Positions 25,101 to 28,100 of a stretch of 64,000 bases of DNA are shown in pieces. A program made the translations under genes and the position numbers. A model generated the notes under the pieces. The model saw only the letters and a program-made list of their open reading frames with translations. It had not been told where the DNA came from and did no database searches. The first letter of the stretch is position 1. The number at the start of each line of letters is the position of its first letter. Source of the stretch: Phoronis australis (lineage: Eukaryota; Animalia; Phoronida); the NCBI GenBank assembly GCA_002633005.1, contig NMRA01000009.1:1039169-1103168 (forward strand), written 5' to 3'.

Positions 25101-28100
25101 TGTATTTCAATCATTCTCACCATTTCAAGAAGTCACATATGTTTTGCATTGTTGACTGATTTAATGCATACAAACATTCATGTATTTTCAACATTTAAGG
25201 CCTTGGCCCACATGTTACATAAATGCGGTTGCAGGATGTATGTTTAAGGTGCTCAGCAAACAATGGAATATCTTGATGGAAAACACAATGTTTTCTTAAG
25301 TGAATAAGTAGAAATTGTCCTGAATTTGGTGGAAGATGTGTGCTTTTGTAATGACACTGTAATAGCCTTGTTTACCATTCAGGTTTACAATGGGGAGAAT
25401 CAGCAGTCTCCCAAACTACACACAGACAATGGCTTCACTGGTAGTGTTGTACCTGGTCCTCTTCACCTGGGACCTGATGCCTTTATTAGATTCAGAGCTG
25501 GCTCTACCAGAAACGATAAAGGATTCAAGTGTAAATTCTCTGTTGGTATGTGCGTGCAAAACTTTTATTACTTTTAGCTAAGTGCCAATACTTTTTCAAT
25601 GAGTTTGCCTGCTAACTAAATCATATGTTGGGAAGTTTTGATCCTCAAACAGAATCAAAATGTCAGATACTCTTAAGACTACCATTCACACTGTAAGTCA
25701 ATAAAAGTTCATTCAGATAATGTAACTGTGCAGGTATTGGTACTGTTAATGTCATTGTATCTGTTTACAGATTGCCCACCTTTACATCTTGATGAACACA
25801 CCAATACATCATCACACGAGTCCAATAAATACATGGCTAACTTCTCTGTCAGTTGTCTCAGTGGTTATCAATTTAACTTGGAGGAATATATGAACAAGTC
25901 CTCTGTGAACGTGGTGTGTGAGAAGGATGGCAAATGGAATATTGATTTGAACCGTTTTCCTCGCTGTGTTCGTGAGTACTTTTGTTTTTAGTAATACATG
26001 ATTTTTGACATTTTTATGAGCTTTTATGCTGTTTATTGTCACAGATATTAGAAACAAGGTTGAGTTTGAATGAGTCATATCTATTTGTAATCATATGTCA
26101 TGTGCTTCACATTCTGTTCCAGCCATACGTTGTGGTCCATTGCCCGTCATTAAGCATGGTTCACCAGCCAACTTGACCGATCCCAATATTGCAAACTACA
26201 AGTGTGATGTAGGCTACTCTCTGTCATCCAATATGTCCATCAAGTGTCAGTCTAATGGAAAATGGGAACAGCCGCCAACCTGTCTACGTATGTTTCTCAG
26301 AGACTCAAGTTTAGTTTTTGGATGTGATCGCGCATTTGATATTTTATCAACATTTTTATCATTTAATTTCTCTTGTTTTATTCACAAATTTTGGCTTCTG
26401 GAAATGGCTCTGGTGGAATGATTCAGCCCAACAGTATTCTTATTAAGTTCACAGTAAATAAATACTAGACACTTGTGAAATTAAATGGCTTCAATGCTCT
26501 GGAAAGTTGAAACTTGTGGATGAGTATAGTCATAATTGTGCATGGTGAACGGAGGCAATATGGTCTGGTAAATATTTCAATTGACACACAATTACTGGTG
26601 AATATTCCAACAATTTTGACTTCTTGCTTTTCAGCTGCCCGGTGTCCAGCACTGGGTGATCTTGATAATGGTATCAAAAATGTGACTGGCAATGAGACAG
26701 TGTTTGGTGCCCAAGTAGAGTTTCAGTGTAACCCGGGTTATGATCTTGTTGGTATACCAAAGCTACTATGTACATCCTCTGGATGGTCAAACCCTAAGCC
26801 AGACTGTGAGAGTAAGTATCTCGGATTGGATGTGAAAGCCATTAGTCTCTGAATGATATGTTTTGTGAGACAGCATACAGTTAACATGACTTTTCTAAGC
26901 CAAGACCATTAAAATTGACTTGGCTAAGTAGTTACTTGGCAATTTCTTTTACCCTATACTAGTGGCAATTTATTTTCTTTTTTTGCATCCACAGCTGTTT
27001 CTCCTAAATCTCAAACATGATAAACGATGACGACGACTTCCGGATGTATCTGATTACCTTTGTGCAAATTTACCTTTAGTTTCTCTGTATCTTTGGGTTT
27101 CCTGAATGAATTCTGATGAAATTTGGCAAGTAGATTTTTATTGCCGGGTCAATAGCAACTTCACATTTTGGATGGATTTGACTTCTTGTGCGACACCTAG
27201 AGACTTTTTTATGATTTTTTGAGTTGGTGTAGCTTCTGCATTACCCAAACCACGCAAAGGATCATGGAACCTTACTTGTGTTTCTTCTGAGAAATGCATA
27301 GCTGATGATGATTTTTGGACATTCCAATAATGTGGCGCTATATAGGGGCATTTTTTTGCTTGCGTCTCAATATTTCTCAGAATCCTTGATGGATGTTTTT
27401 ATTGAGAAGAGTGCAACCTATTTGGATTTTTGGTAAAATCCAACTACTGCAGAGTGCCCTTATGGGATTTTTGTTTTTCTTCTTTGTCATGATTTCTAGC
27501 AAGTTTCTTCATGGCTGTTCAAGAAATTTGAAAAGAAAGTTATCATATAGACAACAGCACAACCCTGATTTAAACAAATTTGACCTACACTGCGACTCTT
27601 TTTTGCCAGAACTTTCTTTAGACACTTGATGGAACTGTGCTCAACCGCCATCTTCAGTTGGTCTCCTACTGTCCTTAATGGTTTCGTCCCTAAACCAAGA
27701 CCATCTCTAGGAGGCGGGACAACAGAGTTGATCAGGCTCTGTCTGACGGTTGTTGGTGGTGTTGCTGTTGGTATTTAATCCAAATCCAACAAGATGCCTG
27801 TTCAGCTTCAGTGGCTGCGTCGCGTAGCAGAGCCTTCTTTCCCGACATGGAGACGCCAAGACACCTCGCCATGGTAATGACCGCACTGGCCGGAAAACCC
27901 CGGCAGCCGACCTCCACAGGAAAACTCCAACATCTCCAGCCGTTAACATGACAGTCATTCCTAAGGTCTGCGTACTTCAAGTTCTTTTGCTCGTGTGCCT
28001 CTACCCTACTCTCCCACGGGATAGTGAGCTCAATTAAGATGACCTGGTGGGAACTGCCCGAGTATATAACCAAGTCAGGGCGCTGGGTCGTCTGGACAAT

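Follow-up and report, generated by a model that had tools for sequence, protein, structure and literature searches.

Hammerhead ribozymes have been divided into three blocks, C, G and S, in a scheme that assumes the CUGAnGA box and its adjacent stems to be inseparable by more than 1-2 nt (Eckert 2023, PMC10085705; here and below, statements on published systems cover the available parts of the papers cited). In that work type SGC was validated and came from metatranscriptomes, CSG came from metagenomes and GCS from one bacterium; these sources do not bear out the statement, in the initial annotation of the locus described here, that non-circular hammerheads had been reported in animals. For retrozymes and Penelope-like elements, a model with circular RNA intermediates and tandem copies has been put forward (PMC6765202). 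We analysed a 64,000-nt stretch of Phoronis australis DNA (contig NMRA01000009.1, positions 1,039,169 to 1,103,168 of the forward strand; hereafter the window), which contains on its minus strand, at 27610-31135, a copy of a non-LTR retrotransposon (LTR, long terminal repeat) that encodes a reverse transcriptase (RT) and a restriction-like endonuclease (RLE). We take this element to be HERO-like. In its tail, at 27642-27752 of the minus strand, lies a full hammerhead core whose block C is split.

Layout of a split hammerhead core

The initial annotation had listed the core nucleotides, the GUC triplet and stems I-III, and all of them were found where it placed them. CUGAAGA (C3-A9) is at 27657-27651 and GAAA at 27685-27682, the G10.1-C11.1 pair is 27720/27686 and the U16.1-A15.1 pair 27700/27682. 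C17 of the GUC triplet is 27699, and cleavage is predicted between 27699 and 27698. The inserted copy retains a tail beyond this cut, as had been noted, with an exact length of 89 nt instead of ~88. Likewise, the non-circular strand order stands: the chain is broken between A9 and G10.1, the blocks follow each other as S-G-C, and the 5' strand of stem II comes before them.

Read 5' to 3', the motif begins with the 5' strand of a closing helix, P0 (27744-27752), followed by a 7-bp hairpin, H (27721-27743), which carries the stop codon of the open reading frame (ORF; stop at 27734-27732) in its loop and sits flush between P0 and G10.1. The 5' strand of stem II (27716-27720) begins with G10.1 and is detached from CUGANGA. 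It is followed by the 5' strand of helix X, which bridges stems I and II (27709-27714, the homologous register, with one C.U mismatch at 27711/27668), by the 5' strand of a putative kink-turn (k-turn; 3n, G2n and A1n, 27706-27708), and by block S, which comprises the stem III 5' strand, the GUC and the stem I 5' strand (27694-27705). Block G comes next, with the stem II 3' strand, GAAA and the stem III 3' strand (27677-27690), and then the 3' strand of the k-turn, a 3-nt bulge with G1b, A2b and 3b (27671-27676). The 3' strand of X (27665-27670), the 3' strand of stem I with CUGAAGA (27651-27662) and, immediately past A9, the 3' strand of P0 (27642-27650) complete the chain. Blocks S and G and the stem I 3' strand are placed by sequence and covariation, the 3' strand of X by covariation, and P0 by folding and by the relatives described below. 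The k-turn is read from its sequence signature where X gives way to stem III: one strand there carries GA and its partner a 3-nt bulge with GA. At the A9/G10.1 break there are zero spare bases, and P0 and H make up a flush four-way junction.

When the fold starts at 27760, P0 (27752-27744/27650-27642) has a pair probability of 0.68-0.84; that of hairpin H (27743-27737/27727-27721) is 0.56-1.0. Since P0 and H are supported helices, the motif starts ~20 nt further 5' than first drawn, within the last codons of the ORF. The closing helix originally proposed, 27731-27726/27641-27646, drops to a pair probability of 0.0 once the fold starts at 27760, and the register 27713-27708/27668-27663 given for the extra helix is rejected in favour of 27714-27709/27670-27665, which covariation supports.

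Standard models overlook the motif, as had been anticipated, and at gathering thresholds Rfam gave zero matches across the whole window. A descriptor, composed after the UTRs (untranslated regions) of the relatives had been viewed, had a single match on both strands of the 64-kb window, which is this motif, with a score of 89. None of 5000 dinucleotide shuffles of the segment reached 89; five gave any match at all, the best scoring 60.

Conservation and covariation among related elements

A protein search with the C-terminal 280 residues of the element found 97 proteins at E≤1e-10, all without characterisation, which come from fish, amphioxus and mussel or are metagenome-derived or unnamed. 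Alignment of 29 homologues with the window piece led to at least 334 confirmed relatives in metagenome contigs, of which the best 80 were kept (79 loci), and three further loci from prokaryote-genome contigs brought the total to 82 loci. No relatives were found in a viral contig collection. Loci L080-L082 are pieces of this group of LINEs (long interspersed nuclear elements) in short contigs of three bacterial assemblies, probably through contamination; L082 has the full motif.

The descriptor matched 47 of the 68 loci having at least 200 nt downstream, 0/68 on the opposite strand, and 0/6800 shuffles at a score of 60 or more. A covariance model built from 46 locus sequences (45 loci) and the window gave 77 matches, two of which (L064:3270 and L031:2113) were excluded as spurious, and placed the motif in the window and in 69/82 loci, 45 of them in the training set, always on the sense strand. 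The C-terminal domains of motif-bearing elements are 32-100% identical (median 43%). Thirteen loci are without a model match. Five of these have <75 nt downstream, seven lack the motif, and L030 is partial, with the 3' part of the motif only, at the contig start (by eye). The seven motif-less loci are scattered over a quick tree from which L080-L082 were omitted; L047 among them is 3'-truncated, L067 and L072 are long branches, and L044 probably ends short of the motif of a long UTR. An Rfam E-value search of eight motif-less loci found no other ribozymes. In the long-3'-UTR lineages L020:1979, L036:2254 and L043:2436 the predicted cut lies 460-720 nt past the ORF match.

Aligning the 3' UTRs of relatives had been proposed as a check, and the alignment shows the motif to be covarying as well as conserved. 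Covariation was measured on a structure-blind MAFFT alignment of 47 sequences (six near-duplicates and two edge hits removed) by a G-test with background correction over 7322 column pairs, with E-values from our own tree-based null of 40 replicates rather than from R-scape. The top 16 of the 7322 column pairs are all predicted ones: three in stem I, three in stem II, two in stem III, five in X and three in P0. Ten pairs reach E≤0.03 (three each in I, II and X, one in III), and the three in X are at E 0.00. Over the whole structure 83% of cells pair, compared with 59% when shuffled and 35-46% when slid. As a guard against circularity, sequences were reselected by their core only (54 sense, 0 antisense, 49 after de-duplication), with H chosen separately and P0 read blind. 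At the flush register P0 was paired in 77% compared with 37-45% at slid registers, with all six pair types present among the 49 sequences, and hairpin H scored at least 12 in 40/49 compared with 1466/9800. Furthermore, a perfect flush junction of 5+6 pairs was seen in 28/47 sequences and in 36/9400 shuffles, in a set chosen with H and P0 scored. An ordinary, unbroken block C is possible in just 5/47 sequences, on which ground a standard SGC hammerhead with intact block C is rejected.

In the consensus kink-turn, a 3-nt bulge and, after it, G.A and A.G pairs separate two helices. Its signature is found in the window copy and in 30/47 sequences, and the GA columns are kept in 51-57 of 69 rows. 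The initial worry that the extra helix would be sterically hard to form alongside stems I and III is probably met by this k-turn signature. In L066, L069, L076, L017 and L048 the 3' strand of stem III runs straight into the 3' strand of X, extra bases lie on the 5' strand, and the k-turn signature is absent.

Conservation in the alignment is highest in the catalytic columns. CUGANGA, GAAA and NUH stand in register with stems I-III, all three of which covary. The consensus fits 58 of 68 real full-core rows, 47 of these rows having been preselected for an intact core. Seven rows have scattered one- or two-base core changes, like decayed copies, and L028 and L041 combine U3 with G8. In L024, which the covariance model misaligned, manual reading of the register gives a compensatory U3-A8 pair; active hammerheads are reported to show C3-G8/U3-A8 covariation (PMC3088659). 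G is absent from position 17 in 67/68 real rows, matching the requirement for cleavage. The motif is a real, conserved RNA structure. Self-cleavage is very probable for the family, and the old copy in the window is itself probably still capable of cleavage.

Head-to-tail junctions and proposed transcript processing

In the relatives, the ribozyme and a 40-100-nt tail are often followed directly by a conserved hairpin, with which the 5' UTR of a next unit begins, an arrangement that fits the initial suggestion that the ribozyme processes tandem transcripts. The hairpin lies within 200 nt of 15/69 ribozymes; eight contigs end early and 46 enter other sequence. Element sequence precedes the 5' UTR in all 24/24 loci with a 5' UTR profile match, a count inflated by the selection of most loci by C-terminus. 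Eight loci (L002, L004, L010, L014, L024, L027, L030 and L039) are informative, having the start of the 5' UTR upstream of the matched ORF, and in 8/8 this start follows an upstream tail or ribozyme, in 0/8 host flank. Copies that do meet host flank on their 5' side (L001, L025, L040, L064, L077 and the window copy, by eye) are truncated further in. The 3' ends of solo copies fall short of the 5' UTR hairpin by 5, 6, 6, 7 and 7 nt (L010, L002, L039, L035/L077 and, by eye, L009/L054). Those solo copies that were viewed continue uninterrupted through the cut site, which indicates that the template was intact there. As insertions run past the cut, a role of the ribozyme in defining the 3' end of the template, also suggested initially, is unsupported.

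The 5' UTR opens (at L003:2293, L010:118, L035:6974 and others) with a small conserved hairpin followed by several repeats of a purine-rich motif, which may serve RT as a binding or priming signal. Self-targeting of the 5' UTR start is disfavoured, since the flanks of solo copies were unlike that start in five comparisons.

The explanation that we prefer, with a probability of roughly 0.58, is that the split-core hammerhead cuts head-to-tail transcripts into units, which are rejoined at the same site and then reverse-transcribed. P0, stacked coaxially on H, would hold A9 against G10.1, and the k-turn would bend X into a position to bridge stems I and II. Cleavage after the GUC (27699) would release unit-length RNAs from head-to-tail transcripts; the two halves of the ribozyme would stay base-paired and could be joined by the ribozyme or by a host ligase into a circle. 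RT would start at an internal site, 5-7 nt upstream of the conserved hairpin in the 5' UTR, and may run past one unit length. By analogy, the simplest model for the role of the motif is a cut-and-rejoin scheme of the retrozyme or Penelope kind. Considered separately, a circular RNA template has in our judgement an even chance of being correct. The joint reading, in which a widespread clade of autonomous animal RT-RLE LINEs combines an active hammerhead of a seventh topology (A9/G10.1 break, perfect four-way junction and k-turn) with a religated circular template and internal priming of RT, is tentative and slightly short of even; as part of it, such a template would differ from the linear-template priming known for R2 and L1.

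Several observations weigh against this explanation. Within the structure, P0 pairs reach at best E 0.15-0.25 in the blind alignment, no significant covariation was found for hairpin H among its 47 sequences, the k-turn signature is missing in 17/47, core changes occur in 10/68 rows, and no tolerated backbone break at A9/G10.1 was found in the hammerhead literature examined. At the junctions, L004 has two units, 68.7% identical, head to tail (1-7000), each with a self-consistent ribozyme and with the switch downstream of the first; one circle cannot yield two such units. Elements of the same group stand head to tail without the hammerhead at L049:1330-1460, L052:2750-2910 and L070:2656-2820; the junction therefore does not depend on the motif. 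Furthermore, no ligation scar was seen at the cut, junction-spanning contigs may come from collapsed assembly of repeats, and the 54-bp direct repeat that flanks the window copy probably represents a target-site duplication rather than element sequence that has run on. The spacers of L049, L052 and L070 look structured and might contain another ribozyme; the Rfam E-value search found none in them.

A serious rival, though one that we consider less likely, is a linear template; RT would jump from one RNA end to another, and the head-to-tail arrays would arise in this way. The ribozyme would be active and would only free the next unit's 5' end in tandem or read-through transcripts, a task that in R2 falls to an HDV-like ribozyme, and the element's own 3' ribozyme would be uncut or slow when RT binds. 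The R2 RT reportedly copies across non-continuous templates. The hetero-dimer of L004 is in keeping with this rival, contig L002 starts 2 nt past the cut position, the RNA may truly end at the fixed 3' ends, 5-7 nt short of the 5' UTR hairpin, and SGC hammerheads are slow, at 0.007-0.13 per min (PMC10085705). Jumping between linear RNAs sits poorly, however, with the eight informative 5' UTR starts, none of which adjoins host flank, and with L010 and L014, in which a 5' UTR is preceded by sequence from the 5' side of the cut; nor is poly(A) or another 3'-end-forming mechanism visible.

The fold could instead be a non-catalytic or rarely cutting 3' UTR scaffold, bound by RT to start target-primed reverse transcription. 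R2-type elements keep an RT-binding RNA in the 3' UTR position, the site is uncut in all insertions examined, and the fixed 3' end comes after the fold. Against this, the nucleotides most conserved are the catalytic ones, C3-G8 covaries to U3-A8 (L024), and position 17 avoids G; we consider such a scaffold improbable. A last reading is that short motifs fell into this order by chance in a single decayed copy. The lack of an Rfam match might suggest it, as might the unconstrained fold of 27600-27740, which is no more stable than its shuffles (z -0.02). That fold excluded the P0 5' strand and was made by a method unable to form pseudoknots, and conservation and covariation in the relatives refute chance, to which we assign a negligible probability.

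The window copy and comparison with known ribozymes

RLE-type non-LTR elements have a single ORF with RT, a CCHC knuckle and a C-terminal PD-(D/E)xK endonuclease (PMC5678591). The window copy has this architecture. Counted from its first ATG, the single ORF (27732-31094, minus strand) has 1120 codons and is interrupted by one stop, at 28592-28590; it encodes an N-terminal zinc-finger-like motif, RT, a CCHC knuckle and PD...E-x-T...K endonuclease motifs, the last recognised by eye. Pfam identified RVT_1 (E 6.7e-19) at 29268-29963, corresponding to residues 442-673 in the frame 28593-31286, as well as zf-RVT (E 1.7e-6), whose 27.5 bits fall short of the 29 given in the other score column of the listing. 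In the relatives L002, L006, L009, L010, L014, L015, L029 and L039 the N-terminus resembles xYPQGxPRGG and has no near upstream in-frame AUG (by eye), which suggests non-AUG or IRES-like initiation (through an internal ribosome entry site) as in R2.

The copy is 5'-truncated at about the ORF start, and past the ribozyme its 3' tail (27610-27641) ends without poly(A). It is flanked by the 54-bp direct repeat, whose 3' copy (27556-27609) is 96% identical to the 5' copy (31136-31189). The idea that the repeat is 5' UTR sequence that has run on is rejected, since the family 5' UTR profile had no match in the window at E≤10 and since P0002, the closest protein, seems by eye to retain the usual 5' UTR. 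The copy starts at about the conserved first residues of the ORF, without the family 5' UTR, and the repeat is therefore read as a likely target-site duplication. Its first four letters equal the opening of the 5' UTR hairpin and lie 41 nt past A9; the spacing from A9 to the hairpin opening is 41-54 nt in 10/15 relatives, and the background is 0.0023 per position. This match, a post hoc and weak one, may reflect priming microhomology or chance. With its broken ORF and its mismatch in X, the window copy is an old, 5'-truncated product.

The element lies antisense within an intron of a plus-strand host gene. This multi-exon gene (22976-33020) has PAN/apple-, CUB-, sushi- and EGF-like exons by eye. 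A tandem repeat with a period of ~45 nt, seen as repeated peptides in two frames, is at 23764-24126, and a run of N is found near 33050-33400.

The split of block C breaks the three-block rule used to enumerate hammerhead permutations, and surveys by descriptor and Rfam have therefore probably overlooked a large family of animal ribozymes. A four-way junction set directly in the catalytic core offers a new attachment point for ribozyme engineering. Should the circle step hold true, RLE LINEs, now being developed as gene-insertion tools, would include members with circular templates and internal priming.

Retrozymes are protein-free, and Penelope-like elements have a different RT and a GIY-YIG nuclease. 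Both resemble the present element in having hammerheads, tandem copies and a proposed circular RNA (PMC6765202, PMC7229834, PMC4918200, bioRxiv 10.64898/2026.07.22.740005), but their hammerheads are of ordinary type I or III, whereas the element here is an autonomous RT-RLE LINE. R2 and L1Tc (PMC6765202, PMC7650587) are likewise non-LTR elements, R2 with an RLE, in which a self-cleaving ribozyme frees the element from a co-transcript. Theirs is HDV-like, lies in the 5' UTR and cuts at the element start; here it is a hammerhead past the ORF, and the cut falls ~90 nt inside the inserted copy.

Hammerheads of types I, II and III (CGS, GSC and SCG; PMC3088659) share with the motif CUGANGA, GAAA, NUH, the G10.1-C11.1 pair and C3-G8/U3-A8, but its strand order is not a circular permutation of theirs. 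The core variants described in the same source have insertions of 1-2 nt (after A6, in GAAA or near C3), while here the core is broken by two helices. The nearest of the published rearranged hammerheads, with which a comparison had been advised, is type SGC (HRIMA-1, PMC10085705), opened inside block C. The motif shares with it the S-G-C order, all core nucleotides and a doubly pseudoknotted core, a short linker between stems I and II (3 nt here, with stem I drawn at 5 bp), and a helix that bridges the other sides of these stems. Unlike type SGC, it has block C split, with the stem II 5' strand at the 5' end and the P0 and H four-way junction, and X meets stem III on both strands through the k-turn signature. 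Type SGC, moreover, is sourced solely from metatranscriptome contigs, whereas the motif stands in a eukaryotic genome, within a LINE 3' UTR; the Eckert 2023 supplement makes no mention of kink, four-way or metazoa. A literature search, which had most subscription papers and Repbase outside its scope, found neither a hammerhead described from HERO or RLE 3' UTRs nor a split block C. The motif would work in the manner of an SGC hammerhead yet belongs neither to type SGC nor to types I-III; in topology it is a new hammerhead variant, and its genomic setting is new as well.

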